A stretch of 64,000 bases of DNA. Origin: Promethearchaeota archaeon. GTDB lineage: Archaea; Asgardarchaeota; Lokiarchaeia; Sigyniarchaeales; SOKP01. A program made the position numbers and the translations under genes. Below the pieces are notes generated by a model. That model did no database searches. It was not told where the DNA came from and saw only the letters and a list, made by a program, of their open reading frames with translations. Each line of letters starts with the position of its first letter. Position 1 is the stretch's first letter. Shown here one piece after another: positions 27,665-58,341 of the stretch. The DNA lies in contig JBHLNF010000005.1 in the NCBI GenBank assembly GCA_048937405.1, forward strand, positions 205,227 to 269,226, in the 5' to 3' direction.

Positions 27665-28441
27665 TTAATAGAATTTAGATTTATCAGAATCAAACACTCT
27701 TTGTAAATGTCCAAATAAATAATCTAAACCGCTTTCTTCTTTAATTGAACAAGGAATTAATTCACTTGTTGATCCCATTTGAATAAAAACTTCTGAAATT
27801 AACATTGATAACTCACGAATTAATCCTTTTTCTCTTTCATTTGTGGAATCTTCTAATGCCTGAAAATCTTGACTCCAATTAATTATCATATCGATTTGAT
27901 CATCATCAATAAGATCTGTTTTTGAGAGGATGTTTATTAAAGGAATTTTTTGAAATCTAAATTGTACGGAAGCAGCAAGAAGTAATGTTGAAATGAACCC
28001 ATTAGGACGAAGTACAAAATTAGAGTCAAATAAAAAACTCACAGATCTTTGAATATCTCCAAATCCAAGAGTACTAGCTATTAATGGACCCGTTTCTCTA
28101 AACGCAAAAAGCTCAAGTTGCCCAGCTGTATCCACAAATATCCAATCTGGATTATAATCATCGATTTCTTCCTTTAAATCATCTAAATAATTAACCATTA
28201 AATCTGAGGCTAAAATTAGACCTCCATTTGGACCAAGTGTATATTGTTCCATAATTTCCTCTAAAATGATATAGTCTCTAATATCAATATCTGGTGTGTA
28301 AGGCATAGTTTTTACTCCGGGATCCAGATTTAATGTAATTGCTGAGATTTCTGGATCTCGATTTATTACATAGTTTTTAATCTCTCCTGTAAGAGTGCTT
28401 TTCCCACTTCCTGCTGTACCTATAAAATAATTTAATAGAAT
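27665..28441 (-). CDS. GPN-loop GTPase, extended 45 codons upstream of the ORF-track ATG; non-canonical start
   Basis: Upstream in-frame ILLNYFIGTAGSGKST (Walker A) and NLDPG; LGPNGG, DTAGQLE, SKTD. Confidence 0.9.
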   Translation of the reverse strand: MLLNYFIGTAGSGKSTLTGEIKNYVINRDPEISAITLNLDPGVKTMPYTPDIDIRDYIILEEIMEQYTLGPNGGLILASDLMVNYLDDLKEEIDDYNPDWIFVDTAGQLELFAFRETGPLIASTLGFGDIQRSVSFLFDSNFVLRPNGFISTLLLAASVQFRFQKIPLINILSKTDLIDDDQIDMIINWSQDFQALEDSTNEREKGLIRELSMLISEVFIQMGSTSELIPCSIKEESGLDYLFGHLQRVFDSDKSKFY

Positions 28442-28582
28442 TCTGAAAAACCTCAGTTATAAGATTATATTGATATATACAGATTTTTTAGGTCATTAAA
28501 GATCATTCATTAAGTAAGTGATTTCAAATCTTCAGAATTTGATAGGAAATATAATCTTGAGGATTAATTAAAATTTTATTAA

Positions 28583-29551
28583 TCACTTTGGTGGATTTAA
28601 TTTTTCTAATTGAATTTCTTTATTTTGTTGTTTCTTCAATCGTTTAATTTGATTTTTTATAGCCTCTTCTTCTTTTTTCATTAATTCGTCTTCACTAAGC
28701 ATAATTGAATTTAATTCTTCTTCAGATAATGGCTTTAAGATATTTTTAATATTGAATTCATTATTTTCATTGACATTTATTGTAAAAATTGATTTCATTT
28801 CTTTAATTACCATTAATTTATCCGCTGACATCTGTCCTTGTATTAAAGCTGGTTTTGTAGAGACTTTAATTCTCTCAATTGCTAGTCCAGATCCTCCTCT
28901 ATTAGGTATAGAAGGAACATATTGAATATTGGTTGGAGGAATATTTTGAAATGATAGAGATAAATTTTGTAAGGCTTGTTCTATCCTTTTTAAAGTCTTA
29001 TTACCTTCACTTATCAAGTGTGATAATGAATTCTCTTCAAATGAGCCCTCAATTTTACTTTTCTGATAGATGAGAGTCCTCTCTTCCTTATTTTCATGTA
29101 CATTTTTCTTTATTTCCTGAAATATTTTCTCTTGTGATATTTTGCCTGAAAAATTTCTTTTGTTCTGTAATTCTTCAAATTCGAAGCCATCATAGCACTC
29201 ATCATTAACCCATATATCCAATATATTGTAGCTTTCTTCAAAATAATATTGAAATTTTTGACCAGAGAATAAAAAAATTGATACTCTCAATATTTTAATT
29301 TGTAACTCATCAACGTTAATCAACTCATCTAATTCAATGGAGAAGGATAGAGATTCCGAAGAGTGATATAACTTTTTAATTGCAATAAGATAGGGAGGTT
29401 GATGAGGATGTATTGCTTGTCTTGAAATCTCAAATTGTAATGTTAATCGTTTTATTTTTTCTGGAAGAAATAAAATTTGTTCTTCTTCATTTTTTTTGAA
29501 TTCCAAAAATAATTTGTGTTGATCGTCCCAAAAAATATGGAACAATTCCAT
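28583..29551 (-). CDS. Hypothetical protein (globular N-terminus, low-complexity/coiled-coil C-terminus)
   Basis: 322-aa ORF. Confidence 0.65.
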   Translation of the reverse strand: MELFHIFWDDQHKLFLEFKKNEEEQILFLPEKIKRLTLQFEISRQAIHPHQPPYLIAIKKLYHSSESLSFSIELDELINVDELQIKILRVSIFLFSGQKFQYYFEESYNILDIWVNDECYDGFEFEELQNKRNFSGKISQEKIFQEIKKNVHENKEERTLIYQKSKIEGSFEENSLSHLISEGNKTLKRIEQALQNLSLSFQNIPPTNIQYVPSIPNRGGSGLAIERIKVSTKPALIQGQMSADKLMVIKEMKSIFTINVNENNEFNIKNILKPLSEEELNSIMLSEDELMKKEEEAIKNQIKRLKKQQNKEIQLEKLNPPK

Positions 29552-29706
29552 ACTAAATTTTTCCCTTTTTATTTTTGATTAAAGCATACAATTCGATATA
29601 TCTACCACTTTAATTCACGCATTAATAAAAAATATAGCCGGATAAGTAATTTAATGATTTACAATAATTAACCTATTAAAATAATGGAATAAAATTAGAA
29701 CAAATT

Positions 29707-30093
29707 CTAATTAGCTTTTTTTAATTTTGATAAATAGTAAATTGGTCTTTTTATCTGGGTTTTAAAATACTCAATCTCTTCTTTTGTATGATCTCCAATA
29801 TAATCATTAACATCCAAGACTAGTATAGCTTCTTGATCTTCTAATTTTTTTAAGGCAATTTCCTGCAATTTTTCCCATTCTGTAGAAGAAAAGTCGTTTT
29901 TATTTAATAGCCCATCAACTGAACAAATTGAGACAATTTTTTTATAAATTATTTGTAAAATGGACTCGATTTTAATAAAATATTCTTTGAACTTTATAGA
30001 ACCAACCAAAAAGATTTTATCTTCTTTTATTTTTGAAAAATCATACACACTGAATTCATGCAAGAAATTCTTATTTAATCGTTCTTTTACCAT
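29707..30093 (-). CDS. Hypothetical protein, nucleoside 2-deoxyribosyltransferase-like fold
   Basis: IFLVGSIKF and AILVLDVNDYIGDHTKEEIEY pattern. Confidence 0.6.
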   Translation of the reverse strand: MVKERLNKNFLHEFSVYDFSKIKEDKIFLVGSIKFKEYFIKIESILQIIYKKIVSICSVDGLLNKNDFSSTEWEKLQEIALKKLEDQEAILVLDVNDYIGDHTKEEIEYFKTQIKRPIYYLSKLKKAN

Positions 30094-30129
30094 AATATAA
30101 TTTATTCTGAATTAATTTTTAAGTTTCAC

Positions 30130-30930
30130 ATGGAATTAAACAAGGTTTACTTAGCAGAAAATCTAGAATTTTTAAAAAAATTAGATTCAAATTTAATTGA
30201 TTTGATTTATATAGATCCTCCTTTTTTTAGTGGAGTAGATTATAAAGAATTTTCTGACTTATGGAAATCCTTAGATGACTATTTAAGCTTTATGATGATA
30301 AGGATTAAAGAAATGTATAGAGTACTTAAAGAAACTGGAAGTTTTTATTGCCATTGTGACAATAATGCTTCATTTGAATTAAAGACTATATGTGATAAGG
30401 TTTTTGGGCGAAAATTTTTCAGAAGAGAAATCATTTGGAATGTAGGAAGTGTCTCAGGATTTAAAAGTCAAGTAAAAGGTTGGATAAGACAACATGATAA
30501 AATTTTATATTATACAAAATCAGAGAATTTTATATTTAATAAGCAATATACGCCCTACAAGGATGAATATATTAAAAAAATGTTCCGTTATAAAGATGAA
30601 AATGGTCGACTATATAGGAAAAGACGAGGTGGGAAACAATACTTGGATGATAAACCCGGTAATGCCATAGGTGATGTATGGAATGATATATATTCATTTC
30701 AAACAACTACTAGATCAAAAGAATACCTTGGATATCCTACCCAGAAACCAGAAAAGTTAATAGAACGTATTATTTTAGCATCTTCAAATGAAGAAGATCT
30801 TGTAGCGGACTTTTTTTGTGGTACAGGTACAACATTAGCTGCTGCTAAAAGACTAAATAGAAACTGGATTGGAGTAGATAATAATTCCAAAGCTATTGAA
30901 TTATGTAAAAAAAGATTAAATATTAAATAA
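30130..30930 (+). CDS. Beta-class N6-adenine/N4-cytosine DNA methyltransferase
   Basis: IYIDPPF, YPTQKPE, DFFCGTGTT. Confidence 0.92.
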   Translation: MELNKVYLAENLEFLKKLDSNLIDLIYIDPPFFSGVDYKEFSDLWKSLDDYLSFMMIRIKEMYRVLKETGSFYCHCDNNASFELKTICDKVFGRKFFRREIIWNVGSVSGFKSQVKGWIRQHDKILYYTKSENFIFNKQYTPYKDEYIKKMFRYKDENGRLYRKRRGGKQYLDDKPGNAIGDVWNDIYSFQTTTRSKEYLGYPTQKPEKLIERIILASSNEEDLVADFFCGTGTTLAAAKRLNRNWIGVDNNSKAIELCKKRLNIK

Positions 30931-30982
30931 AATAATACTAACCAATTTAATTTATGCTAAGTATTTCTTAAAAATAAGATAA

Positions 30983-31342
30983 ATGATTATTATGAAGGAT
31001 AAGTATGCTTTATTTGCTTTTAATGGAGAACCAATGTGTTTTATTCATGTAATATTAAACGCATTAGAAATGGATAAAAAAGGTTATGAAGTAAAGGTAA
31101 TTATAGAAGGATCTGCTACTAAATTGGCAGATCAATTTGAAGATAAGAAGAATCCTTTTTATGAAAAATATCAAGAGTTAAAAAAATCTGGATTAATTGA
31201 TTGTTTCTGTAAAGCTTGTAGTAATAAAATGGGAACTTTAAAAAAAGTTGAGGATCTTGGATTTCCTACTTGTACCGAACTGATGGGACATCCAAGTATG
31301 GAAAAATATATTGAACAAGGTTATTCAATAATAACTTTCTAA
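30983..31342 (+). CDS. DsrE-family protein
   Basis: EPMCFIHVILNALEM, IIEGSAT, CKACS, GHPSM. Confidence 0.75.
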   Translation: MIIMKDKYALFAFNGEPMCFIHVILNALEMDKKGYEVKVIIEGSATKLADQFEDKKNPFYEKYQELKKSGLIDCFCKACSNKMGTLKKVEDLGFPTCTELMGHPSMEKYIEQGYSIITF

Positions 31343-31353
31343 TTGAACTAAAA

Positions 31354-31731
31354 TTAATCTCTTTCTATAATTACAGCAGGAATTCCAAGCCATTCTCTTG
31401 CCTCTTCAAGGTTTTCTACTATTTTTCTTTTGGGTGAATCTGCTCTTTCGAATAAAATCTCCGCTTCCTTTTTTAGGACAAGGTTTTTTGAAATAATATA
31501 GGCAGATTTAACTAATCTATCATTATTTCTTTTAAGAAGATCCAAAATCATTTCAAAAGATTTAAGATTTAACAAGATAAGATCTAAACCATCGACTATT
31601 ACTGAAATACTTTTAAAATCTTTTGTTCTTTCCTCAAATTCTTCAATAAACCTTTCGGCAACTGAAGGAGGAAACGTTCCAAGTGCTTTTACATAAAGGT
31701 GAGTTTCTCCTATCTTCTCGATTTTATACAT
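31354..31731 (-). CDS. STAS/SEC14 (SpoIIAA-like) domain protein
   Basis: Size, VIVDG strand, terminal NLEEAREWL motif. Confidence 0.55.
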   Translation of the reverse strand: MYKIEKIGETHLYVKALGTFPPSVAERFIEEFEERTKDFKSISVIVDGLDLILLNLKSFEMILDLLKRNNDRLVKSAYIISKNLVLKKEAEILFERADSPKRKIVENLEEAREWLGIPAVIIERD

Positions 31732-31903
31732 ATTCTAAAACTCAATAGTACAATTAATATAATTAATATTTATCAAATCTAAATATTTATTTTATTGTCC
31801 AATAAATTCTAAAAAAGTTATATTTATTTATAAATGAGATTCTGAATTTAGATGCAATGAAAGAATTTCACGTGAAGATATTAATTTCTTTTTTGAATTA
31901 TCT

Positions 31904-32098
31904 TTAACCTGATTTACTTTTAACTTGTGCTGTTCCAATCAAATTATATTTTTTCCAGTCTTTCTTAGAGGTTGATCTGATTGTATTCACATTTCCACAC
32001 CCCTCACAACTTGATTTTCTTTCCCAATGCAAATACCCACATTCATTACAAATATATGGATATGTTTTCTTAAATAATTTCCAATCTATTTTTATAAT
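31904..32098 (-). CDS. Small zinc-ribbon protein (64 aa), non-canonical start, not in ORF track
   Basis: IIKIDWKLFKKTYPYICNECGYLHWERKSSCEGCGNVNTIR...; CxxC-x10-CxxC; GGGGTGA upstream. Confidence 0.7.
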   Translation of the reverse strand: MIKIDWKLFKKTYPYICNECGYLHWERKSSCEGCGNVNTIRSTSKKDWKKYNLIGTAQVKSKSG

Positions 32099-32316
32099 CC
32101 ATCACCCCTAATAACAAATTTCCGTGAATAATAAAATAATTCACTCTAATTAATTGATTTATTTACTTTTATAGAAAAATTCAGCTATTTAATTACAAAA
32201 GTAAAAGATTCGAGAGAAATAACTTAATTTTATAAAGTTAGTCTAAGAGAAAGATATGTTAAAATGATTGTGAAATCGAGCTTTCACGAATAAATATCAT
32301 AATTTAATAAGAAAAG

Positions 32317-32450
32317 TGGGGACTGAGGGATTTGAACCCCCGACCGACAGGTGTCCGCTATACAGCTTTTGCTTGTAGGATCTGGAGCCTGCTGTGCTAC
32401 CGGATTGTGCTTACTAAGCGATTTTGCTTGGAAAACTACACCAAGTCCCC
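32317..32450 (-). tRNA. tRNA-Trp(CCA) with two introns (D-loop 32405-32435; anticodon loop 32353-32381)
   Basis: Acceptor GGGGACT/AGTCCCC-A; anticodon stem GCAGG/CCTGT with CT-CCA-G; T arm GGGGG-TTCAAAT-CCCTC. Confidence 0.9.
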
Positions 32451-32524
32451 AATCTCAAGTTAATTTACTAAAGAATGTATGAAATAAATATTTTTTTCTA
32501 ATCATGACAAATGAATATGAAAAA

Positions 32525-33514
32525 TTAGTAAAAGCAATTAGATTTGATATTAACTGTTTTTATTGTCGTTTTCTTTTTTGATGGTGAATCGCTTTTAATG
32601 AAATTCCATTTTAATTTGCCAATTAGCCATTTTCCTTCATTATTTGTGCCAATCTCCGTTTTTATAATTAATCCGTACTGCATCACAGGACACTTCTTAC
32701 TTTCTGTGCCAATACAAAAATCTCCTAAAGAATAAGCAATTATTTTGTTGATGTTATTAATGGGAAAAAATGATATTGGTTGTGGACAATGTGAATGGTG
32801 CCCAATTAATGCATCAAATTTGTCTAACATTATCCTCCCGTGGTTAATGGTTCCTATACGGGGAAATAATTCCAGTTCATAACCCCAGTGTGGAAAAAGA
32901 ATGTTAAATGCGCTTTTTTTAAGATAATGGTAAGAGTCCTCTAACTCAACTAAGTAATTACAGGGGCGGTTAGACCATCGAGTGCTACCTACAACTCTTA
33001 TTTTTTCAGATAAATCTATATATGGATTTTTTTCTGTCCCAAACACATTAAAACCTCGCTGAACCAATTGCTTTATTGAAATCGTAAAACCATATATCCC
33101 AAAATCACCACTATGATTATTTGCAACTGATAAAAATGTCTTTTTTGGAGGGAATAAGGCTTCAAGAGTATCCATTATCCAAGGTTTATGTCTTTTATCC
33201 ATCAACTTTTTTTTCTCTGAAGTTATCGTTCCTTCAAAATTTCCAATAAGAAAATCGGATCCATCAATAAATTGATGAACGCTATTATCAATTGTTAATT
33301 TCTTAGTGTTCAGAGCCATTATATCCCCTATGAATGAGACTCTATATTTAGGAGTGATTTTGTTTAATTGATATTTTTTAGGAATGTAGTCTATTTTGCT
33401 ATTATTATTTTTCTTTGGTCCAAAAAAAGTCCGTCGAAGCCTCCCAAAACTCTCTATTATTGAATAAGGAGTAGTAATATGACCATTATTAAAGAGTCGT
33501 CCAGACTTAATCAT
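32525..33514 (-). CDS. CapA/PGA_cap metallophosphoesterase family protein
   Basis: GDIM, GNFEG, VANNHSGDFG, PHWGYE, GHHSH, YSLGDF. Confidence 0.88.
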   Translation of the reverse strand: MIKSGRLFNNGHITTPYSIIESFGRLRRTFFGPKKNNNSKIDYIPKKYQLNKITPKYRVSFIGDIMALNTKKLTIDNSVHQFIDGSDFLIGNFEGTITSEKKKLMDKRHKPWIMDTLEALFPPKKTFLSVANNHSGDFGIYGFTISIKQLVQRGFNVFGTEKNPYIDLSEKIRVVGSTRWSNRPCNYLVELEDSYHYLKKSAFNILFPHWGYELELFPRIGTINHGRIMLDKFDALIGHHSHCPQPISFFPINNINKIIAYSLGDFCIGTESKKCPVMQYGLIIKTEIGTNNEGKWLIGKLKWNFIKSDSPSKKKTTIKTVNIKSNCFY

Positions 33515-33962
33515 AAACTAAAATAGATTTAGATTATAATTTTTAGTTTTTGAAACAAAACTTGTAATGGATTTTTGGATAGTTACTGGATTTACGTATT
33601 AATTGCAATTGAAATAAAGAAAAAAATACATTGAATCCTTAGCTATTTATCTTAGTTTTTCACTACATTCCTTAACAATACTAGATATTTTCCTTGTTTT
33701 TTAATTTGTATTGTATTATGGATTTTTGTAATCTTCTATGAAAAGATATAGAAAAAAATTTAATTCAATCCAAATCCTAAACTCCCAAATAAAAGAAAAT
33801 TTGTGATTACTGTATTTTCAATTTAGTACCGAAAATTTATAAATTCTTATGAAATTACATAAAATAATTTCTAAAAAGAATTAATTAGTTCTCTCAGAAA
33901 AAGCAAATTTTAAAAATTCAATTTGAAAAAACTCAAATTTAAATTTAAGGTGTAAAAATTAA

Positions 33963-34520
33963 ATGAAAATTATAGGTATTGTAGGTAGTCCAAGAGTAGA
34001 TGGGAATACCCAAAAATTAGTAGATATCATTTTGTCAAGTAGCGCGGAAAATGGTGCAGAGACAAAAATATTTAATTTAAATAAAATGGATATAAAAGGA
34101 TGTCAAAGTTGTTATCACTGTAGGACTACTGATGATGGTTGTGCAATAAAGGATGATATGCCACAATTATTTGAAGAAATAATACAATCAGATGCATTGA
34201 TAATTGGGTCACCTATCTATTTTGGACAAATGTCCGCTCAGTTAAAAATATTTATTGATCGTCATTATTCCCAAATGAAACCAGATTTTAGAAATGAGAT
34301 TGGCAAAAAGGATTTGGTCTTAGTTTATACTCAAGGTAATTCTGATATTGATCGATTTAAACAATATATTGATTCTACTTTAAGATTATACGGTTTTATG
34401 GGGTATAAAGTCAAAGATATAATGATTGCACCTGGGCTCCGTAAAATTGGTGCTATTTATCAAGAAAATGAGTTGGTGGAAAAAGCAAAAGAAATTGGAA
34501 AACAGTTATTACAAAATTAA
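33963..34520 (+). CDS. Iron-sulfur flavoprotein / NADPH-dependent FMN reductase family
   Basis: GSPRxxGNT, CQSCYHC...C, GSPIYFG. Confidence 0.9.
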   Translation: MKIIGIVGSPRVDGNTQKLVDIILSSSAENGAETKIFNLNKMDIKGCQSCYHCRTTDDGCAIKDDMPQLFEEIIQSDALIIGSPIYFGQMSAQLKIFIDRHYSQMKPDFRNEIGKKDLVLVYTQGNSDIDRFKQYIDSTLRLYGFMGYKVKDIMIAPGLRKIGAIYQENELVEKAKEIGKQLLQN

Positions 34521-34601
34521 ACATTAGTACAGCGAAATAAAAGCATTTTAAAACAATAAAAAGAGTATTATCGTATATAATTTATAAGAGATTAATTATA
34601 G

Positions 34602-35156
34602 CTAAAAATCTAAAACAAATTGATAGTAGATTTCTTCTTCTGAGCTTTTTATTTTTGTAGTTTTCTTAACTGTAACTCCAATCAGTTCTAATGCTTTTTT
34701 TATATAACCCATAGTGACAAATTCAAAGAAGGGGTGATATTTTATAAAATCTATTAACTGAACATGTAATGTATCTCCTTTAATTTCAACTTTTTCTACC
34801 CCTGCATCAAAATAATGAGTCCAGATATGAGCTAGAAACGTATTAATAAAATCATCAGATGTTCTTTTCTGTTTAATATATGCTTTGAGATAGCCTTGTT
34901 CATTTAGAGCAATTTGTGCTGCTTGTTCCCCAAAACTCCATAATACTTTCTGATTACCATTATGAAATTCTTTAATCAATTTATCTATGAATGACAAATA
35001 TGAATCTAGAGGAATTAGAGACGTCATAGTAACAATATTCGGAAACCCCGAATAATCCTTTTTAAATTTCTGGAAGAAGGTGTTCCAACGTTGTTCTCCA
35101 AAAGCTGAAATATGAGCATTTTTTATTGGAATAAAAGATATCCCTTTTGCATTTAT
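34602..35156 (-). CDS. Hypothetical V4R/HNOB-like protein, extended 43 codons to a putative ATA start
   Basis: In-frame extension INAKGISF...AFGEQRWNTF; FGEQAA, IWTHYFDAG, GYIKKALELIG. Confidence 0.65.
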   Translation of the reverse strand: MNAKGISFIPIKNAHISAFGEQRWNTFFQKFKKDYSGFPNIVTMTSLIPLDSYLSFIDKLIKEFHNGNQKVLWSFGEQAAQIALNEQGYLKAYIKQKRTSDDFINTFLAHIWTHYFDAGVEKVEIKGDTLHVQLIDFIKYHPFFEFVTMGYIKKALELIGVTVKKTTKIKSSEEEIYYQFVLDF

Positions 35157-35365
35157 TTTAAACCACCACCATCATTAGAATCACAATTCTTATTTTCTCT
35201 ATTTAGTTCTATATAACATTTTAACTACTTAATAAATCATTTTTTTGTTTGATAGTTTTACGTTATATAAGAACGAAAAGAGATTTTTTTTTTTATAAAC
35301 CTTTTTAATCCTATCATTCACTTTTAAGACTAAGAGAAGAAATATATTAAATACATAGCAATTTA

Positions 35366-35875
35366 TTATAATTTTTCTCCACATTCTTCACAAAATTTAA
35401 TATTTTCCTTGTTTTTCAATTTAGCACCGCAATTAGAGCAAAAATTATTCATTTTGGGTAAAGTGGTACTCTCTTCTAATATTTCATAGTCAAAAGTTTC
35501 TTTCTCTTCTTCAGTATGTTCAAGTTCAATATTACAATTATCGCAAAATTTACTTTTTGAGGATATATATTTCCCACATGAAATGCATTTGTACCAGAGT
35601 TTTAAACCACAATTTCTGCAAAAATCACTATATTTAGTTATAGGAGCATTACAACGGGGGCAAGTTTTTTTTTCTAACCAAAAATAATGAGAAGTCATTT
35701 GAAATACAATTAATAATAATAAAGTTAGGGGGAGTAGCACCCACCATATAGGACTTATTAGAAGGGATAATATAAAAGATAAAGCTGTAATTATAATAAA
35801 GATTAATACAAATACTCCTATAGATCCTCTTTTCTTTATATTCTTGCCACTAATGTTCACGGAAATAACTTTCAC
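35366..35875 (-). CDS. Membrane protein with tandem zinc ribbons (DZR)
   Basis: Two hydrophobic helices followed by six CxxC motifs. Confidence 0.8.
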   Translation of the reverse strand: MKVISVNISGKNIKKRGSIGVFVLIFIIITALSFILSLLISPIWWVLLPLTLLLLIVFQMTSHYFWLEKKTCPRCNAPITKYSDFCRNCGLKLWYKCISCGKYISSKSKFCDNCNIELEHTEEEKETFDYEILEESTTLPKMNNFCSNCGAKLKNKENIKFCEECGEKL

Positions 35876-36482: not shown

Positions 36483-36495
36483 AAAAAAATTTTTT

Positions 36496-46549: not shown

Positions 46550-47098
46550 TTATTCAAAAAGTTCAATAATTGCTTGCCCAGGGGTAGCGATTCGTTCTCG
46601 ATAAGTAAGTATCCCATTTTCAACTTCTTTTTCATGTATGAGTCCTAATGTTATATCTTTCTCAGATACATATCCCCGCTCTCCAGCTTCAAATAACTTG
46701 ATGATATTTCCTTGTTTGTCTTTGATATCAATTTTAGTTATCGTAGTCTGACTCACGTCAAAATATACTCGATTACCCTCTATCTTGTTCAACTTTGCTT
46801 CAGTAATAAGTAAATCTCTACACCTCACCATACCTCTCATTTGTACTTCAATTTCTATAATGGTTCCATATTTCCCATGTTCGAGAAAATCTTCGAATAG
46901 TTTTGTAATAAAACCAAAACTTAACAATCCATGAGCAATAACGCCTTTAAGCCCTGCTCTTTCGGCTATAACATCATTAGTATGAATAGGGTTTGTATCT
47001 CCTGATGCTTTTGCATATTGTTTTAGTAAATCTCTTGTAATATCCTTAAATTCATTTTTTAATACTTGTCCAACTTTTAAATCAGAAACTTTAACCAT
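46550..47098 (-). CDS. MaoC-family (R)-hydratase/dehydratase, catalytic subunit
   Basis: YAKASGDTNPIH, IAHGLL; likely ATG at 47098 after GGAGG. Confidence 0.88.
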   Translation of the reverse strand: MVKVSDLKVGQVLKNEFKDITRDLLKQYAKASGDTNPIHTNDVIAERAGLKGVIAHGLLSFGFITKLFEDFLEHGKYGTIIEIEVQMRGMVRCRDLLITEAKLNKIEGNRVYFDVSQTTITKIDIKDKQGNIIKLFEAGERGYVSEKDITLGLIHEKEVENGILTYRERIATPGQAIIELFE

Positions 47099-47099
47099 T

Positions 47100-47624
47100 T
47101 TAATACCCTCCTTTGCGAAATCCAGCAGAGATAGTAATATTACAAACAGGTTCATTATTTTGATTTTTTACATGAATTAAAAAGTCAGCAAATAACATCA
47201 TATTTTTTTCAACTAATTTTATATCAACACACCTACCTGAGACTTTTAGTTTATCCCCAGGTTTCACATCAACACAACCTTCCCAATTATATCTATTACC
47301 TGCATGTAGGAGTTTACCCGGATCAAGCATAATACCCCGTTCTTTTCCATCTTGATTCAATTTTATTCCTAAAAGCAATTTATATATAGCTTTAATAGTA
47401 TAATAATTTGCAAACGCATGACATGCAATTACACCTTGTTCCTCTGTACCGACGTATTTGGGATTAGTTATACCATATATTTTAGCAAAATTAACCATAT
47501 TTCTATATCTAATATTTACTGTTGTAGATCCAGGAATATCCTTTCCTTTCATATTGTCAATTAAAAATTCAGCATTCTTTTTCATTTCTTTAATATCCAA
47601 ATTGACATCACTCTTTTTGCTCAA
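47100..47624 (-). CDS. MaoC N-terminal-type hot-dog protein (partner subunit)
   Basis: FAKIYGITNPKY, LLHAGNRY, VKPGDKL, NQNNEPV. Confidence 0.75.
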   Translation of the reverse strand: MSKKSDVNLDIKEMKKNAEFLIDNMKGKDIPGSTTVNIRYRNMVNFAKIYGITNPKYVGTEEQGVIACHAFANYYTIKAIYKLLLGIKLNQDGKERGIMLDPGKLLHAGNRYNWEGCVDVKPGDKLKVSGRCVDIKLVEKNMMLFADFLIHVKNQNNEPVCNITISAGFRKGGY

Positions 47625-48476: not shown

Positions 48477-49550
48477 CTATAATTGATAGAAGAATGCCCC
48501 TGCTACTGCAAAAGCAGATGAATTGATAGAATTTGGTATATGAGTAATTTCTTCGTAAGTAACTATATCATCAAAGCCTAATTTTTTTAAAGATTTTCTG
48601 ATTAAGAAATCTGCTGATAAACCAGTTATTACATATTTTGGGTTAATTTCAAATTCAATAAATCTATTTTTAAGATTTTGCATGAATAATCCTATTTCTC
48701 TTATAATAATATCTAATTGCTTCTTATAAATGTATTTTGCAATTCTCTTTAAATCTTCTTTTGAAATTGTTTCAAGATCCATGCATATTACTCTAGAAAG
48801 CCGAGCATAACAATTTTCTAATGATTTTGAACGATTATCAGCAGTATCATTAATATATTCTTCTTCTGAAATATTTTTTAAAATTCTATGAATATCTGAG
48901 ATTAAAGCAAACTTCTCAAATGATATACGAATATTTTTATCTTTATAAGGGACATGATGAGTAATAGAGGGAATTGTAGCTCTCAAACCTCCTGTGTAAA
49001 TTAACTCATGATTTTCTAAACGAGAAATATCATCTCTTCCTTTTGGTATGGGTAAAGAATTAATAATTGGTATTATATCAATTGTTGTCGATCCTGCATC
49101 AATTAAAATACACTTAGGAATGAATTGACCTAAGAATAAAGCTGTAGAAGCCCAATTGGCTGCTGAAATTAAGGAATACTCCGCTTTAGCTATATCAAAA
49201 TTAACAAATGTACTCTTGTTGGTGATAAATTTTAATTTATTTCTATCAAAGATTTGATCAAGGGCATTTAAAATAGTTAGAATCCCTTCTCTTTTGGTTT
49301 GAAAAGCATCAGAGAGTTCAGCAGTAATAGCTACAGCGATGTAATTAATACTTTCAAGTTTAACATTATTCTTAATGACTAAATTTTCAGTGACTCTTTT
49401 AAATAATTTTGGAATTTCAATTATTGTTTTTTCCCAGAATGGAAAATATTCTATATATGAATAAGATTCAATAATTTCTTTATTTTTTATTTTAAGAAAA
49501 GCTGCTTTTGTATTAGCTCCACCAATATCTAATCCAAGTATGAGAATTAT
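48477..49550 (-). CDS. mfnF: Hydantoinase A-family methanofuran biosynthesis protein, about 357 aa, putative ATA/ATT start
   Basis: 188 stop-free codons upstream of the ORF-track start: GLDIGGANTK, YFPFW, TAELSDAFQTKREG, AANW, DAGSTT. Confidence 0.85.
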   Translation of the reverse strand: MILILGLDIGGANTKAAFLKIKNKEIIESYSYIEYFPFWEKTIIEIPKLFKRVTENLVIKNNVKLESINYIAVAITAELSDAFQTKREGILTILNALDQIFDRNKLKFITNKSTFVNFDIAKAEYSLISAANWASTALFLGQFIPKCILIDAGSTTIDIIPIINSLPIPKGRDDISRLENHELIYTGGLRATIPSITHHVPYKDKNIRISFEKFALISDIHRILKNISEEEYINDTADNRSKSLENCYARLSRVICMDLETISKEDLKRIAKYIYKKQLDIIIREIGLFMQNLKNRFIEFEINPKYVITGLSADFLIRKSLKKLGFDDIVTYEEITHIPNSINSSAFAVAGAFFYQL

Positions 49551-50587
49551 TCATCACTTTCATATCGTAATTTTAAAGCATTGATTAGCTTATCTAAGTT
49601 CTCTCCTGTAAGAGCATTAGTTAAATAAAATTCATTGTCTTTTAGATTTAGTTTATCTCTTAAAAATTGAATTTCTGAATCCTTGGCTAAATCTATTTTA
49701 TTAAAGATAATAATAATCTTTATCTGTCCCTCTTTAGAAAAATTACGTTTTATTTCATTAAATAATTCAATTTGAGACTCAACATTATATCCAGAGGCAG
49801 GTGTAGGATCAAATATAAAGAGAATTATATCAGATATTAATCTTAGAGCTAAAATTGCTTGTAATTCTATATTATTCCTCTTCATCATAGGTCGGTCTAA
49901 TATGCCTGGGGTATCTAGACACTGAATATTAATTGAATCGAATTTTCTTTTAATTTCCAAATGTCCCATATTCAACTTTTTAGTTGTAAATGGGTATTCT
50001 TTAACTTCAATCCTTTTATTTGTGGAGATTTTTTTGACAATACTACTCTTTCCAACATTGGGATAACCTGCAACAACTATGCATGGCATTGTATAATCGA
50101 TTGAAGGTATTTCTCTCAATCTACCTCTAATATCATTAAGATATTCAAGATTATTTTTCTGCTTATTTATTATTGAAGAGATTCTCCCAAAAGCAGCTCT
50201 GCGCAACCGGTCCCCTTCTTTTGGAGCTTCTATCTTCTTTAATTTGGAAAGATATTCTCTTTCAATTTGATTGAGAATAGGCAAAATTCCATTTAATTTA
50301 CCCAATGTTAATTTCAAATTATCAATATTTACGAGTATAGATGCTAGTTCTTTGTAAAAGTCTGGAAGATCATTAATAATGGGAACCATTTTTATAATTT
50401 TTATAATTCTATTTATGATTTCTTCAATAGCAACAATAATACGCTTGGATTCTTTTTTTTTAGCCTTAATTAGGATTGGAGCGTTTTTTGAAACTTGAGC
50501 TGAACTTCTCATGCTTCTTTTAAATGCAATGTCTAATAATTCACTTGAACTTGGTACATGATAGAATTTATCAAAAGGGTTTTTCAT
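49547..50587 (-). CDS. NOG1-family GTPase
   Basis: AGYPNVGKSS, YPFTTK, DTPGILDRP, RNNIELQA, NKID. Confidence 0.93.
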   Translation of the reverse strand: MKNPFDKFYHVPSSSELLDIAFKRSMRSSAQVSKNAPILIKAKKKESKRIIVAIEEIINRIIKIIKMVPIINDLPDFYKELASILVNIDNLKLTLGKLNGILPILNQIEREYLSKLKKIEAPKEGDRLRRAAFGRISSIINKQKNNLEYLNDIRGRLREIPSIDYTMPCIVVAGYPNVGKSSIVKKISTNKRIEVKEYPFTTKKLNMGHLEIKRKFDSINIQCLDTPGILDRPMMKRNNIELQAILALRLISDIILFIFDPTPASGYNVESQIELFNEIKRNFSKEGQIKIIIIFNKIDLAKDSEIQFLRDKLNLKDNEFYLTNALTGENLDKLINALKLRYESDE

Positions 50588-50635
50588 TAAAAATCATATA
50601 AAATGTTTGTTTTAGGATAAAGAGATAATAATTAT

Positions 50636-51175: not shown

Positions 51176-51373
51176 ATAATGTTAATAATTTTTAATACTA
51201 TTTTTGATCGTATAAGTTCATGATTTCTATTTATTTAAAGATTTTAGAAAATAAAAATGTAACAAATATGGTATTGCTTTCCAGAAAAACTTTTAATGTG
51301 ATTTTAATTATTATCTAAGACTTTAACATTATTTTCTACATCAAAAATAAAATTAATTAATATAAAACATCTA

Positions 51374-52462: not shown

Positions 52463-52512
52463 TATATATTTTTCAGTTTTAAGTTATCTCGATACATTTT
52501 TTAATCCTATCT

Positions 52513-54093
52513 TTAAAACTCATGTTTATCAATTAGAATGGGTAAAAGTATTGTCATCAATGACATTGATCTCTTTTTCTTTATTAATTTGAAAAAAGGA
52601 AATTCAGGGTACATCATGAAATATCGTTCATTCTTTAATAAACTTAGAGTTTTAAATCGAGGGAAAAAAGAAAATTTCGAATGGTTGAAAATGTAATTTT
52701 TAAGTATATTTTCAAGCAAAATCTTATCAATAATAATTATTGCTGAAAGTTTACCAAATTTTTGAGCAATTTCAGAACTAATTGAATTCAATGAAAGACT
52801 GTTATTTGAAAATATTTCTCCTATACCAATTGCTTCTAAACTTGTCAAAGTACTCGCTTCAATTTCTGCTAAAATCATCTTTTTGCAAGCATTTTTTGAT
52901 ATGCTTTGCCGAGAGATTTTCAAGTTTTTAGCTCCCTTTACATCTGTGATGATGAATAATATTCGAGAGTTTAAACCAAAATAAAAATCGAGATAATTAA
53001 AAATTACCTCAGGTATTGCCCAATGTGAAAGTTTTCTGAAATTTATATTAAATCCTAAAATTCTTATCAAAAATCTTATTAGAGTATTGTAAATTCTAGG
53101 GTGTGGAACCATATTCCAGTGCTTTTCAAAACTGCGATATCCAAAAAGAAATTTTTGTATTAATAATTTTAAGCTTTCTTTCTTTAATGGAATAAATAAC
53201 TCGAAAAAATTAGAAAGAAATGAAATAATATCATTTTGATTTAAATAATAGACCTTTTCAGTATCTAATTTATTTTTAATTATACTTAGACTATCAATTA
53301 CATCCAAATCAATAGTATTGAAATCCAATTCATTAGGTGTAAAGAATTCTACTTCTAACTCGGATTTTCCAGACTTTAAATTGGTATGTTGAAGATGAAT
53401 TACTATTTTTGTTTTATTTCCTTCTATTAAAAAAGAGATATTGAATTCAGGTAGAATTTCATTAATGAATTTAAAAATATTTTTAAATCGTATTTTTCCC
53501 AATAATTTGATTACATTTTTAAAAAATTCAGAGACAATAGGGGCAGGATAAATTAAAATTAAGTCATGAACAAATAATTTTTGAATCAAATCAAAAAATT
53601 GCTCAAAAAAATCATGAGTGGAGATTTCCTCAATTTTTTCGCAATATTTGTTTATCATTTCAAGAGCTTCATTTTTAAATAATCGAATTGATGATATTCT
53701 AATACCTTTTTCTTTTAATATATTCGCTTGAATCTTATTAAAGATTTCATCTATTTTTCTAATTTCTAGACTCTTTATTTTAATTAATCCTTTGGGTAAT
53801 ACTTCTATAGATTGATGGATTCCAGCTTTCTTAGTCTTATATAGATATAAACCCAATACTTTATTCTTTTTTTCCTTTTCAGATATTATAACATCAAGTA
53901 TGTTCTGTTGATCATTTATAAATTTCGGATAAAGAACCTCAAAAAAATAATATAATAAATTAGCATTTAAAGTAATTGGGGTCAATGGAATTCGCACAGT
54001 TTTCTGTATTTTTTTAGGATCTTCAATTATTTCTCTGTTTTCATTGAAATTCAATATTTTTAACCAGTTTATCCTGAATCTTTCATTTATCAA
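52513..54093 (-). CDS. Hypothetical protein
   Basis: 526-aa ORF, no motif recognised. Confidence 0.65.
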   Translation of the reverse strand: MINERFRINWLKILNFNENREIIEDPKKIQKTVRIPLTPITLNANLLYYFFEVLYPKFINDQQNILDVIISEKEKKNKVLGLYLYKTKKAGIHQSIEVLPKGLIKIKSLEIRKIDEIFNKIQANILKEKGIRISSIRLFKNEALEMINKYCEKIEEISTHDFFEQFFDLIQKLFVHDLILIYPAPIVSEFFKNVIKLLGKIRFKNIFKFINEILPEFNISFLIEGNKTKIVIHLQHTNLKSGKSELEVEFFTPNELDFNTIDLDVIDSLSIIKNKLDTEKVYYLNQNDIISFLSNFFELFIPLKKESLKLLIQKFLFGYRSFEKHWNMVPHPRIYNTLIRFLIRILGFNINFRKLSHWAIPEVIFNYLDFYFGLNSRILFIITDVKGAKNLKISRQSISKNACKKMILAEIEASTLTSLEAIGIGEIFSNNSLSLNSISSEIAQKFGKLSAIIIIDKILLENILKNYIFNHSKFSFFPRFKTLSLLKNERYFMMYPEFPFFKLIKKKRSMSLMTILLPILIDKHEF

Positions 54094-54097
54094 CTAG

Positions 54098-55567
54098 CTA
54101 AAGCGCCTCCCAAATTTTTAATTTATCAAATAGTTGGTCTGAAATCCAAAGTTTGTTTATATTCATTAGTAGGTTTAAATTAGGAAGATTTTTTTTCTTA
54201 TAATATTTAAATATTGATTCCAAACATTTGAAAAAATCAGGAGGACATCCAGATAAATTTAAAATATTTTTATTTTGTTTTTTCTTAACTTTTTTCTTCT
54301 TTTTGGATTTCGATTCCTTTTTTGGTTTTAGTTGATTATCAGTTATTAAATCTGTCTTGTATCCAACAATTTTCTTTCTAAAATTGTAATCTTTAGTACT
54401 GTTAATAGCACAATCTCCAAATAAAATAACATGCCCCCCTTCTTCCGGTTCAGCTGGAGTTTCACCAATTAAAAAAGAATTTTTATTGTTGTATTTTAGA
54501 TCTTTATCCATAAATGTTTTAATAAAATTTAATAAATGATAAGCATATTTAAAACATCCTGAGCATATTTTACCTGAATTAATTGATATGTTTCTTATCC
54601 TGATATCTTCGAGCTTTGAAGCACATAATTTTATGTTTGTTCGGATATCTTCAAGTTTTTCACCCAAAATTTTAATATCTGAGATTTTAGGAACTGGAAA
54701 GTTTCTATTTTGTGCTTCTTGGATTAATTCACTCTTATTAATATCCACATTTAAAGCATTAAGAGTTACTAAATCAACAGAAATCGCTTCTTCTCCAAGT
54801 ATAATTATACCTGTCTTCTTTAAATTAGAATCTTCATAAGGATAGGGTCCTGCTCCTTCTATTACATAAAAGAGATCGTTGATTATTAAGTTTGGTTGTT
54901 TAATTTCAAAGACATCAAATATATTTGAAATTAAAGCTTTTTTGTATAGATCACGAGTAAGGTAATCATTTTTATTTCTATTTTTTTTTCCAAATTCTTG
55001 AAAATTTGCTGGAATAATTGAATAATGATTTAATAGAGATAAGTTGAGTTTAAATAAAGGATTTACATTAATCTGATTTACAGATATAAATTTATTTGAA
55101 TTTAGAATGGTGTTTGAGATAAGGAATTCATTATCTTTTATTTCTACTTTTGTGTGTGAATTATATTTGATTTTTTTTAAATTGTCTTGATCAATTTTTT
55201 TTCCATAATTATTACTATTATCTAAAAATGCTAAATCTGCTCCAAGAGTTTGAAAATATTCATTTAAATGTAATATATCTGATATTAATTTGATAGAAAT
55301 TCCCTTATAAGGAAAACTTCCTAATGAAACGTGCTTCGCTCCAGCTTTTTTACAGGATAGAATTAGGGCTTGAAGAATATCAAAATTAGTATTAATAGGG
55401 AAGCCTCCTGGCAAACAAAGATTAAATTTAATAAAGACCTGATCACCATCATCAATAAATTTAGAAATTCCTCCAAGGATATCAATTCCTTTTGATAAAC
55501 ATTCTTTTGGAGTATTGCCTTTAGTAATAGCTACTTCGATTTTCTTCGATTTTAATTGAGTAAACAT
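54098..55567 (-). CDS. DUF362-family Fe-S protein
   Basis: GDQVFIKFNL, EGAGP, CSGC, FGDCA, GCPP. Confidence 0.8.
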   Translation of the reverse strand: MFTQLKSKKIEVAITKGNTPKECLSKGIDILGGISKFIDDGDQVFIKFNLCLPGGFPINTNFDILQALILSCKKAGAKHVSLGSFPYKGISIKLISDILHLNEYFQTLGADLAFLDNSNNYGKKIDQDNLKKIKYNSHTKVEIKDNEFLISNTILNSNKFISVNQINVNPLFKLNLSLLNHYSIIPANFQEFGKKNRNKNDYLTRDLYKKALISNIFDVFEIKQPNLIINDLFYVIEGAGPYPYEDSNLKKTGIIILGEEAISVDLVTLNALNVDINKSELIQEAQNRNFPVPKISDIKILGEKLEDIRTNIKLCASKLEDIRIRNISINSGKICSGCFKYAYHLLNFIKTFMDKDLKYNNKNSFLIGETPAEPEEGGHVILFGDCAINSTKDYNFRKKIVGYKTDLITDNQLKPKKESKSKKKKKVKKKQNKNILNLSGCPPDFFKCLESIFKYYKKKNLPNLNLLMNINKLWISDQLFDKLKIWEAL

Positions 55568-55634
55568 AAATGTGTTCGGAAAAATTCATTTATTAAAATG
55601 ATATTATTAAATAATGAAAGGATTAAATTTTAAT

Positions 55635-55830
55635 TTAAGTGATAGGAATAATGGAAAAAATAAATTTAAACGATAATATAATCGAAATTCCATCAGATAA
55701 AAGTGGAATCGATATGGGGCAAACTATTTCGAAAACTGCGTATTTAAACAATAGTAAATTATCCTTATCTTATTTTCTAATTCATACTGGTTTTCCAGAT
55801 ATTAAAAGTAATAATAACAATAAAAAAATA
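55635..55830 (+). pseudogene. Degenerate 5' fragment of the pantothenate kinase gene (copy of about 57456-57650)
   Basis: EIPSDKSGIDMGQTISK vs EIPPDKIGIDMGQTLSK; collinear nucleotide similarity that breaks down near 55810-55830. Confidence 0.8.
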
Positions 55831-55856
55831 TTAATTATCAAAAAAGAGGATTTAAA

Positions 55857-57401
55857 ATGTCTAAAAAAATATTAAATGATTACGATGTTGTAATCATAGG
55901 ATGTGGTATAGCCGGATCAGTTGTTGGTGCGATTTTATCCAAAATGGAACATAAAAAGGTACTCATCCTTGAACAATCATCCCAGATAGGGGGACGTGCT
56001 ACATCATTCCGAGGGGAAAGTATAAAGGATGCAGATGAATTTCGTAAAACCTTAATGCAATCTGCTCACTCTTGGGTAGTTGATAGAACAGACCCTGATC
56101 TCAACACACTCATCAAAAACAAGATGCTTAATGGTTATGTGTTTGAAGCGGGTGGTAGAGGTGCTTGGTATACCAATCGAGGAAGGGTCAGCCACGCATT
56201 GGCCCTATTTAACAAACCTTCGATTTTCTATCCTAATGTAGGTTTCGTATGGTATGATCATGATTGGAAACCTCACATAATAAGCAGAAGATCTAAGTTA
56301 GGTTGGATGAGCAATGAAGATTACTCTGAAATGGTTAAAGTTCATAAAAAAAAGCTTCAAATTCAATCAATAACTGAAGCTGAAAAATTAGACCATGTAA
56401 CTTTAAAGGATTGGGTAAACAGTATAACTGAAAATGAGCTCGCTCAAGAATTCCATTATGCAATGGGGACCTTCCAGACGATTATCAACGATCCAGCTCT
56501 GAACTCTGCAGGAGAGAATCTAAAAGTTTTTCTACAGGTAGAAAAAATGGGAGTACATATAACTGATGGTTCTTGGGCATTTGCAGGTGCACCAGGGCAT
56601 CGCTTTATTGTTGAAGGTTTTGCTAGTGTCGTTAAAGATAATCAAGGTGATATAATTACTAATGCTCAAGTCAGTGAAATTATCATCGAAAATGGAAGGG
56701 TTATAGGTGTAAAAGCTAATATTGATGATGAAATAGTAGAGATAAAGGTTCCGTTGATAGTTTGTACTACTCCCCCACGAGTATTGCTAAAGCTAATATC
56801 TGAGAATTTATTACCCAATGATTTTATTAAATTAGCTAAAAAAGTAATTCATACTGCCATGGTTGCGGCGAACATAGGTTTGACTAAACCATTGAGTACT
56901 TTTTGTGAACTGGAGGTTGACCCTAGATCTTTTTACCATACATCTATGTTGATCTCAGAGAAGGAAGGATTGTTTAGAGGCAATGTTCCTCTCGATATAA
57001 TAAGTTTATCTACTATTGCACCTACAACCGCTCCTGAAGGGAAACATCTAATGGGTATGGCTAGCAGTATTTTAGATAGTGAAGTACATGATAAGAATAA
57101 AGTGAATATAGTGATAGACAGGATGTTGAAATTCTTAGATACCGCATTCCAAGGCTGGAGAGATGCCGTGGAATTCATGTTATTCACTGTAGGAGATACA
57201 TGTATATTGTGGCGACATCCAGAAGATGAATGGGTGGATATAGAATGTCCAACTATAAAAGGATTATATTTTGCTGGAGATACTTATGGAAAACGCATTA
57301 ATGAAGGAGGAATTGAAGCTGCTACCCATTCTGGATTTATATGTGCTGGTAAAATAATGGGTAAGGACTATTTACAACTTTTACCACCGCTCTTCCGCTA
57401 A
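55857..57401 (+). CDS. FAD-dependent oxidoreductase (phytoene desaturase/amine oxidase-like)
   Basis: IGCGIAG, LEQ..QIGGR, APEGKHL, GLYFAGD, GIEAATHSG. Confidence 0.85.
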   Translation: MSKKILNDYDVVIIGCGIAGSVVGAILSKMEHKKVLILEQSSQIGGRATSFRGESIKDADEFRKTLMQSAHSWVVDRTDPDLNTLIKNKMLNGYVFEAGGRGAWYTNRGRVSHALALFNKPSIFYPNVGFVWYDHDWKPHIISRRSKLGWMSNEDYSEMVKVHKKKLQIQSITEAEKLDHVTLKDWVNSITENELAQEFHYAMGTFQTIINDPALNSAGENLKVFLQVEKMGVHITDGSWAFAGAPGHRFIVEGFASVVKDNQGDIITNAQVSEIIIENGRVIGVKANIDDEIVEIKVPLIVCTTPPRVLLKLISENLLPNDFIKLAKKVIHTAMVAANIGLTKPLSTFCELEVDPRSFYHTSMLISEKEGLFRGNVPLDIISLSTIAPTTAPEGKHLMGMASSILDSEVHDKNKVNIVIDRMLKFLDTAFQGWRDAVEFMLFTVGDTCILWRHPEDEWVDIECPTIKGLYFAGDTYGKRINEGGIEAATHSGFICAGKIMGKDYLQLLPPLFR

Positions 57402-57459
57402 TAAAAGGAATTATTTTTAATATTTATTGACAATTGGAGTTAATTGAATTCTAACCTAA

Positions 57460-58341
57460 GTGATAAGACTGATAACAAAAATAATTTTAAGCGATATTAA
57501 TTTCGAAATTCCACCAGATAAAATTGGAATTGATATGGGACAAACTCTTTCGAAAATAACTTACTTAGAAAATAATGAATTAAATTTATCTTCTTTTCCT
57601 ACTTATACTGATGTTTCAGAGATTAAAGCATTTCTCAATAATAAAAAAGATCAATTAAAAGTAATTAATTTTACGGGTGGAAAAAGTTTTGAATTATATG
57701 AAGCATATTCAAAAAATTTTATATCAAATCTGATAAATGAATTTGAAGCAAGTGTGAAAGGCATCGAATTTCTTTATAATCTAGAAAAAAAGCAGGAATT
57801 ACCACGTTCATTAATAGTGACTATAGGAACTGGAACCTCAATTGTTTTGAAAAACGATCATATTGTTCATTTAGGGGGTTCCGCACTTGGGGGAGGTTTT
57901 TTTATGGGATTAATAAAAACTATATTCAATTTATATAATTTCCAAGAAGCACTAAACTTAGCACAAAAAGGAAATCGGTATAATGTTGATTTAAAGGTTT
58001 CAGATATATACCATCCAGGGGATAAGAGAATTGATTTAATCTTTAGGGAATTTACCGCAGCATCATTGGGTAAAATTAATGAAAATTATGAAGTAAACTC
58101 TTTAAACCAAGGAGATTTTATTAATTCTATCATTTGTATGATTGGTGAAAATTTAGGAATTATTGCTAATACTATGGCTAGTAATAATGATGTTACTGAA
58201 ATTGTTTTTTGCGGAGGTTTCCTAAAAGGAAATAAGATTTTAAAGAAAATTCTCTCCCTTTTATGTACAGTAAATAATAAAAAGTGTATTTTCTTAAAAA
58301 ATTCTGAATTTTGTGCAGCAATTGGAGCATTATTAATTTAA
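57460..58341 (+). CDS. coaW: Type II pantothenate kinase
   Basis: GIDMGQTLSK, TGG, NEFEA, IGTGTSI, GGSALGGG, VDLKVSDIY, AASLGK. Confidence 0.88.
   Translation: MIRLITKIILSDINFEIPPDKIGIDMGQTLSKITYLENNELNLSSFPTYTDVSEIKAFLNNKKDQLKVINFTGGKSFELYEAYSKNFISNLINEFEASVKGIEFLYNLEKKQELPRSLIVTIGTGTSIVLKNDHIVHLGGSALGGGFFMGLIKTIFNLYNFQEALNLAQKGNRYNVDLKVSDIYHPGDKRIDLIFREFTAASLGKINENYEVNSLNQGDFINSIICMIGENLGIIANTMASNNDVTEIVFCGGFLKGNKILKKILSLLCTVNNKKCIFLKNSEFCAAIGALLI

Follow-up and report, generated by a model that had tools for sequence, protein, structure and literature searches.

Near-cognate ATT and ATA codons as probable translation starts of conserved genes in a Lokiarchaeia genus

We analysed a window of 64,000 nucleotides from a Promethearchaeota archaeon (Asgardarchaeota; Lokiarchaeia; Sigyniarchaeales; SOKP01), positions 205,227 to 269,226 of contig JBHLNF010000005.1 in assembly GCA_048937405.1. 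Four genes of the window are the subject of this work. They encode a GPN-loop GTPase, a small zinc-ribbon protein, an uncharacterised ('V4R-like') protein and an mfnF-like protein, and each has an in-frame stop codon upstream and no ATG, GTG or TTG (together NTG below) before its N-terminal motifs. A panK gene with a partly similar arrangement lies further along. A previous reading of the sequence alone had drawn attention to the four frames, and direct inspection agrees with it. In all four, as that reading also held, an ATT or ATA stands behind a motif resembling a Shine-Dalgarno sequence (SD), at a register of -11 to -17. The window has a G+C content of 27-31% and the assembly comprises 4.47 Mb in 29 contigs. 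Close relatives of the GPN GTPase come from metagenome-assembled 'Promethearchaeota/Promethearchaeia' (Lokiarchaeia) genomes, all from sediments. The genus is represented at species level by at least 40 genomes, 2-5 Mb in size, and orthologues were compared in up to 40 of them. Open reading frames (ORFs) were searched against the Pfam and NCBIfam profile libraries.

The GPN-loop GTPase is encoded on the minus strand (27665-28441) and matches PF03029 with 178 bits against a cut-off of 27. Positions 1-238 of the profile correspond to residues 6-250 of the protein, P-loop included. The frame opens after TAA 28459-57 and reads LRFFR-I-LLNYFIGTAGSGKS, with an in-frame ATT at 28441-28439. No NTG precedes the Walker A motif GTAGSGKS; the first one, ATG 28306, lies 45 codons past the beginning of the Walker A region, and there is no ATG near the start. 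The SD GAGGT occupies 28450-28454, and its GAGG begins 13 nt ahead of the ATT, which is the optimal register. This motif is kept in all 30 orthologous loci of the genus, where the start column reads ATT in 24, ATA in 6 and ATG in none. In three species an in-frame stop (TAG or TAA) separates the SD from the ATT, and in one of these it lies just one codon ahead of the ATT, so that no alternative start is left to them. The corresponding column in five genomes from the three other families of the order holds ATG (4) or GTG (1). The ATT is therefore derived, and the genus has retained ATT or ATA throughout. The 45 NTG-free codons are free of stops in every species, and substitutions number 205, 77 and 545 at the first, second and third codon positions. 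A protein initiated at ATT 28441 would be predicted to begin with Met followed by LLNYFIGTAGSGK.

The small zinc-ribbon gene (31904-32095, minus strand) shows a weak zf-ChsH2 match. After TGA 32104-02, the frame offers ATT 32098 and ATA 32095. We take the ATA as the probable start and the ATT as an alternative; the SD GGGGTGAT (32101-32108) ends 5 nt ahead of the ATA. The first NTG is a TTG downstream of the first CxxC. Among 14 aligned orthologues the start column holds ATT in 10, TTG in 1, and ATA in 1 plus the window's own copy, which makes ATT or ATA in 12 of 14, and the start codon lies about 6 nt behind GGAGGTGA. An out-of-frame ATG near the start in the window (32102) is not found in the aligned orthologues. 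The NTG-free stretch contains no stop in any species and has 41/15/52 substitutions by codon position.

In the 'V4R-like' gene (34602-35156, minus strand), TGA 35174-72 precedes ATA 35156, and the first ATG lies 43 codons 3' of the ATA; initiation there would cost 48 codons of the frame. The SD-like GGTGGTGG spans 35163-35170. Homologues were found in three other genomes, with ATA at the start in two of them (G047, behind GGTGGTGAT, and G036, behind GGTGAT) and ATG in the same column in the third (G037). The protein has no Pfam or NCBIfam match, V4R models included.

In the mfnF-like gene (48477-49550, minus strand), the frame after TGA 49553-51 reads ATA 49550 and ATT 49547, and the first NTG lies 188 codons downstream; this stretch is without stops in all species, with 265/126/462 substitutions by codon position. 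The ATA is the probable start, and the ATT an alternative in a better SD register. The SD-like AGTGAT (49553-49558) lies within the 3' end of the upstream gene, a NOG1-like GTPase (49547-50587, minus strand; Pfam NOG1_N/NOG1/MMR_HSR1), whose stop TAA (49549-47) overlaps the ATA in the sequence ATAA (49550-49547). Three species start the mfnF-like gene with an ATG that shares a classic 4-nt overlap (gaATGAca) with the stop of the NOG1-like gene. At this place the window reads gaATAAtt, as do at least two other species, and in further species the ATA stands one codon later, behind an in-frame TAG or TGA and in the absence of the out-of-frame ATG seen in the window. That ATG (49554) is made up of codons of the NOG1-like gene (..GAT GAA TAA) and is missing in two species. 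The ATA arose by one G-to-A change in an ATGA overlap that kept the upstream stop (TGA to TAA). Because such a change preserves the overlapping stop, re-initiation by the terminating ribosome probably contributes at this gene. The protein passes TIGR03123, 'probable H4MPT-linked C1 transfer pathway protein', with 280 bits against a cut-off of 244 and profile position 1 at residue 5. It falls below the MfnF equivalog NF040623 (234.7 bits, cut-off 520), and the adjoining MfnE-like kinase gene scores under the MfnE cut-off.

Across orthologues of the four genes, the start column is either maintained or alternates with ATG, and no coding-type conservation is seen ahead of it.

The panK gene, probably for a type II pantothenate kinase (57460-58341, plus strand), matches PF03630 (140 bits, cut-off 28.5) and PRK13317; it falls below the NCBIfam equivalogs, with 193 bits against a cut-off of 234. 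At its ancestral start column the window has ATA 57472, where the other species, 29 in all, have ATG (28) or GTG (1). Upstream stands a conserved SD-like AAGTGAT (57458-57464), which contains the in-frame GTG 57460; a CTG at 57469 is also in frame. An in-frame stop separates the conserved AAGTGATA from the ATG in six of these species, so that the GTG is part of the SD and not the ancestral start. The ATA appears from this alignment to be a recent, lineage-specific change, and among the variants listed for the sequencing-run contigs none falls at 57472. A 5' fragment of panK (55639-55875, plus strand) retains the ancestral upstream region, which matches that of other species, together with the SD and ATG 55651. 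Positions 55622-55837 and 57443-57657 are 77% identical over 220 nt at an offset of 1821, and ATG 55651 aligns exactly with ATA 57472, as the sequence-only reading had noted.

The fragment adjoins a gene at 54098-55567 (minus strand) with a divergent promoter region, as in other species, and it is separated from the intact panK by a gene for a 514-aa flavin adenine dinucleotide (FAD) amine-oxidase-like protein (55857-57401). As the two 5' copies are only 77% identical, the insertion is either old or was brought with foreign DNA.

The same reading had proposed that the GTG at the start of a gene it called E2, like that of panK, lies inside an SD-like motif and is followed by ATA or ATT. This part fails. 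The ORF probably meant (35366-35875, minus strand) is the sole other GTG-initiated ORF in the range, and its second GTG, at 35860, is a conserved start column with GTG, ATG or TTG in 17 alignable species, several of which have in-frame stops just upstream. The gene (35366-35860) therefore has a canonical GTG start. We rejected the E2 identity, since the ORF matches the DZR and Zn_Ribbon_1 families of Pfam, consistent with a double-zinc-ribbon membrane protein, and UQ_con matches neither this ORF nor the other ORFs scanned in the range. Among the other names proposed, GPN GTPase holds, V4R finds no family to support it, and mfnF holds at the level of TIGR03123 and not at that of the equivalog.

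To place the window in a wider frame, the SD register was calibrated on 1854 genes with clean ATG starts. The SD upstream of these starts is a piece of GGAGGTGAT, in which the TGAT end lies preferentially 5 nt from the start and the full motif begins at -14. We then took 3603 stop-to-stop ORFs of at least 100 codons and considered the in-frame codons that precede their first NTG. SD frequency peaks sharply at register -14 for ATA, ATT and ATC (2.0-2.6%); AAA, AAT, TTA, TTT and TAT have no such peak (0.3-0.6%). When all sense codons are ranked by SD excess at registers -15 to -13, the top three are ATT (73 observed, 31 expected), ATA (41, 25) and ATC (15, 8), followed by CTG (6, 1.2), CAC (5, 1.2) and, slightly lower, ACG (4, 1.5). 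The enriched codons are the one-mismatch set of AUG, save CAC and a few small counts. Overall, an SD precedes 4.29% of near-cognate codons in the genome and 1.61% of control codons (p = 2.5e-17), and the near-cognates are in excess by about 87. The corresponding values are 5.02% and 1.41% in 800 kb from two congeners (p = 2e-6), and 2.88% and 2.08% in 800 kb of a closed genome from another family (p = 0.37).

With SDs of 5 nt, the excess of starts amounts to 171 for ATG, 53 for TTG, 18 for GTG, 51 each for ATT and ATA, 4 for ATC, 6 for CTG and 4 for ACG. About 116 near-cognate starts thus compare with 243 canonical ones, which is 3.2% of ORFs and about one third of strongly SD-led starts; in the two congeners the near-cognate share is 0.30. 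Homology gives a similar picture. In a screen of 521 non-shadow orthologue pairs from 400 kb each of two congeners, 3.6% of the genes of this genome, and 4.8% of those of the relatives, show coding-periodic conservation for 21 codons or more ahead of the first NTG. Only extensions of this length were counted, as those of 6-20 codons show almost no codon periodicity and are mostly conserved leaders; an initial version of the screen had been inflated by shadow ORFs and conserved non-coding leaders. The credible cases have a conserved ATT, ATA, ACG or CTG 5-6 nt behind GGTGA-type motifs, with one ATT/ATG swap, and one case has TAA directly followed by ATC, with no SD. An SD of at least 5 nt precedes 8 of 12 near-cognate genes and 11.7% of ATG genes. 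The distance from the upstream stop to the first NTG has a heavy tail in the genome, with 111 ORFs of at least 40 codons. A smaller tail, without SD+ATH signatures (ATH, that is ATA, ATC or ATT), is present in the sister-family genome as well, so that tail length alone is not a clean count.

Taken over these comparisons, about 3-5% of genes in the genome and the genus appear to begin at ATT, ATA or similar codons. The counts rest on SD-based or homology-based proxies, and the phylogenetic boundary is drawn from one 800-kb sample of one sister family. The sequence-only reading had proposed that ATA and ATT initiation is systematic in the lineage and misleads annotation; orthologue alignments, the register statistics with their sister-family control and the comparison of N-termini all favour this view.

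Two further ORFs of the window were recorded in passing. At 12414-12431 (minus strand) a TAG, a GTG inside AGGTGAT, AATT and then ATC 12416 form a panK-like pattern, with the ATC as a further candidate near-cognate start; the ATC opens an ORF of 168 codons, which has its first ATG 74 codons in and no NCBIfam match. An ORF of 2120 codons at 2407-8769 (plus strand) has a TTG start right after the upstream stop, with a properly spaced 5-nt SD and the first ATG 47 codons in.

The gene for the initiation factor aIF1 itself appears to have a near-cognate start. In the present genome its ORF has no NTG ahead of the N-terminal zinc knuckle. An ATT lies 8 nt behind GGTTGTGAT and is kept in five genomes of the genus (the present one, G001, G040, G012 and G006); in other families an in-frame ATG or TTG is present. 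Read from the ATT, the protein aligns with the full-length aIF1 of the solved structure 4MO0, starting with its residue 5 at residue 3 of 4MO0. Archaeal aIF1 rejects AUU complexes in vitro (PMC4705826, PMC6237735), and infC, the bacterial gene for IF3, has an AUU start and is under autocontrol (PMC4705826; PMC6237735; Butler et al. 1987, as cited in PMC4705826). By analogy, the ATT start of aIF1 suggests an autoregulatory loop of the infC type. The sequence-only reading had raised altered aIF1/aIF2 fidelity as a possible cause; a feedback loop tied to fidelity would be in keeping with the ATT start.

The aIF1 locus of one genome of another family (G024; L221, G024:C6, ~1480-1510) has ATA at the start column, with an in-frame TGA shortly before it; an ATG that precedes an A6 run lies one base out of frame. 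Either the ATA is a further near-cognate start or the assembly carries a homopolymer error here.

Judging from the alignments, the start codon is apparently in flux with ATG in the mfnF-like, 'V4R-like' and panK genes. In the GPN GTPase, zinc-ribbon and aIF1 genes ATT or ATA is fixed, which suggests that a weak or regulated start is under selection there.

We consider it highly likely that these observations are best explained by SD-directed initiation at near-cognate codons, combined with a relaxed start-codon stringency throughout the lineage. Translation would start mostly at AUU and AUA, and elsewhere in the genome also at AUC, CUG and ACG. A strong SD, a piece of GGAGGUGAU (in its full-length form from 14 nt upstream of the start), would position the 30S pre-initiation complex, and the ordinary initiator Met-tRNA would pair imperfectly with the near-cognate codon. 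We infer that initiation takes place at these codons with Met as the first residue. Owing to a low stringency in the genus, near-cognates would form a regular and heritable class of weak starts, and aIF1 could feed back on its own AUU start.

Among the alternatives, the one that fares best keeps initiation at the near-cognate codons and replaces relaxed stringency by special mechanisms, namely termination-reinitiation coupling, an initiator tRNA dedicated to, or modified for, AUA and AUU, or editing of the mRNA to AUG. The ATA of the mfnF-like gene lies in an ATAA overlap that is homologous to ATGA overlaps elsewhere, the homology case with TAA directly before ATC does without an SD, and the initiator tRNA was not found; all three are in its favour. 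However, the GPN GTPase, zinc-ribbon, 'V4R-like' and aIF1 genes have free-standing leaders with their own SDs. The codons AUU, AUA, AUC, CUG and ACG are the classic one-mismatch spectrum of a CAU anticodon, unlike the reading pattern of another anticodon. We know of no U-to-G or A-to-G mRNA editing in archaea. Because of the one-mismatch spectrum, the tight spacing and the stronger SDs, we favour SD-directed initiation by the normal initiator tRNA and regard the special mechanisms as unlikely.

Far less probable is N-terminal truncation or decay, with translation from the first downstream ATG or TTG and the upstream frame a relic. Gene callers restricted to NTG would indeed yield such truncated models. 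Yet truncation would cost the GPN GTPase its Walker A motif, the zinc ribbon its first CxxC, aIF1 its zinc knuckle and the mfnF-like protein 188 codons, including an ASKHA-type N-terminal motif. In every species the regions in question lack stops, and their substitutions follow a coding pattern; matches to the family profiles begin at profile position 1.

Least credible of all is that sequencing or assembly errors hide ATG starts, so that the out-of-frame ATGs 32102, 35152 and 49554 would be the true ones. A one-base change in an A-run would bring ATG 32102 or 35152 into frame, and the genome is a metagenome assembly without rRNA. Against this, the same ATT or ATA recurs in up to 30 independently assembled genomes. 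The zinc-ribbon orthologues lack the out-of-frame ATG, the GPN GTPase gene has no ATG nearby at all, and ATG 49554 is accounted for by the codons of the NOG1-like gene. Contigs from two studies, the probable source run and an independent one, are identical over 49442-49937, which spans the mfnF-like start; this check used assembled contigs of sequencing runs. Random indels would not concentrate in the first codons of otherwise intact genes. The earlier reading had named indels or miscalls that restore an ATG, with out-of-frame ATGs nearby, as what could overturn it. This objection fails, as these ATGs are codons of the upstream gene (mfnF-like) or absent in orthologues (zinc ribbon), and independent assemblies agree. 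Given the coding signature and the identical contigs, both sequencing error and gene decay are excluded for practical purposes.

Programmed frameshifting from the out-of-frame ATGs (which are not conserved), read-through of the upstream stops (whose types vary and whose upstream sequence is not conserved) and a changed genetic code (ATA and ATT are abundant as internal Ile codons) were rejected.

Several points weigh against SD-directed initiation under relaxed stringency. Near-cognate initiation normally reaches at most a few percent of the efficiency of AUG, so that its use by housekeeping genes is unexpected. The aIF1 alignment shows no genus-specific change in the conserved, codon-contacting loop. 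The sister-family control is not fully clean, with 12% near-cognate starts compared with 30-32% in the genus. The panK case is ambiguous, as the in-frame GTG 57460 (or CTG 57469) could be the start. The 'V4R-like' gene has a homologue in three other genomes only, and its coding signature is weak (28/25/42 substitutions by codon position). No archaeal small-subunit rRNA or other rRNA is matched in the 4.47-Mb assembly; since the 3' end of the 16S rRNA is missing with it, the anti-SD is deduced from motif enrichment and not from the 16S sequence. The initiator tRNA was not found in the genome by aragorn, with and without introns, or by a conserved anticodon-stem pattern, which leaves room for an unusual initiator. 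A search of sequencing runs found no RNA sequencing run that contains the stretch.

For the whole 4.47 Mb, aragorn reports only 7 tRNA genes in a search for intron-free genes, and allowing introns raises this to 14. Probably the tRNA genes are rich in introns or missing from the assembly.

Near-cognate starts are known in bacteria as rare exceptions. In E. coli, pcnB starts at AUU. A close parallel is infC, where, as here, an AUU behind an SD is conserved between species and the gene of the rejecting factor (IF3 there, aIF1 here) is itself AUU-started. In contrast to the handful of genes in the bacterial AUU cases, at least about 3% of genes, housekeeping ones among them, seem to be involved here, in an archaeon that has aIF1 and aIF2 rather than IF3. 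NCBI translation table 11 formally permits ATT, ATC, ATA and CTG as prokaryotic starts, the same codons as here. It treats them as rare exceptions, and common gene callers, limited to ATG, GTG and TTG, skip them. ACG is not among the initiators of table 11. The mfnF-like gene resembles the termination-reinitiation coupling at 4-nt ATGA overlaps that has reportedly been described in archaea and bacteria, in work attributed to Huber et al. 2019, Nat Commun. It overlaps the NOG1-like stop by 4 nt, and relatives have ATGA there. The overlap differs in being ATAA with AUA as the restart codon, and only one of the four genes is so placed.

The archaea most closely related to eukaryotes include this lineage, and in eukaryotes near-cognate initiation is a regulated event. 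There, eIF1 stringency controls near-cognate initiation, and eIF1 is autoregulated via a poor start context (PMC4705826). The two situations share the one-mismatch spectrum (CUG, ACG, AUU, AUA) and a fidelity factor whose own start is suboptimal. They differ in that eukaryotes rely on cap scanning and Kozak context, whereas here an SD at a fixed distance would position the codon; moreover, eukaryotic near-cognates mostly serve upstream ORFs and N-terminal extensions, whereas here they would be the sole start of core genes. In Asgard archaea, our literature search found no report of near-cognate start use of this kind. What appears new is the scale (about 3-5% of genes), the conservation, the inclusion of core genes and aIF1, and the phylogenetic position. 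It is possible, and we put this forward only tentatively, that the genus combines a lowered stringency with a loop formed by AUU-initiated aIF1 and with selected weak starts that tune some 100 genes or more, as a prokaryote-style precursor of eIF1-controlled near-cognate initiation.

For annotation, gene callers restricted to NTG would truncate or miss several percent of the proteins in these genomes. P-loops, zinc knuckles and entire N-terminal halves are among what is lost, and this affects comparative work on eukaryotic signature proteins that uses Asgard genomes. If the reading is correct, conserved AUU, AUA, AUC, CUG and ACG as the sole starts of housekeeping genes, aIF1 included, would be unusual for any prokaryote. 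In a lineage near the origin of eukaryotes, where the aIF1 homologue eIF1 controls stringency, the evolution of start-codon fidelity would become directly testable with defined genes and contexts.

Two observations fall outside the question of start codons. On contig C28 of the same genome (plus strand, ~496112-496403), coding-type conservation is found on both sides of an in-frame TGA (..KGADGVAIGA TGA YKGECDYETGN..), also in a congener; selenocysteine insertion or another kind of recoding may take place at this TGA. In the window, two adjacent MaoC/FAS1-type dehydratase ORFs at 46550-47624 (minus strand; 47100-47624 and 46550-47155) lie in different frames and share 56 nt; they may represent a two-subunit hydratase pair or a frameshifted gene.

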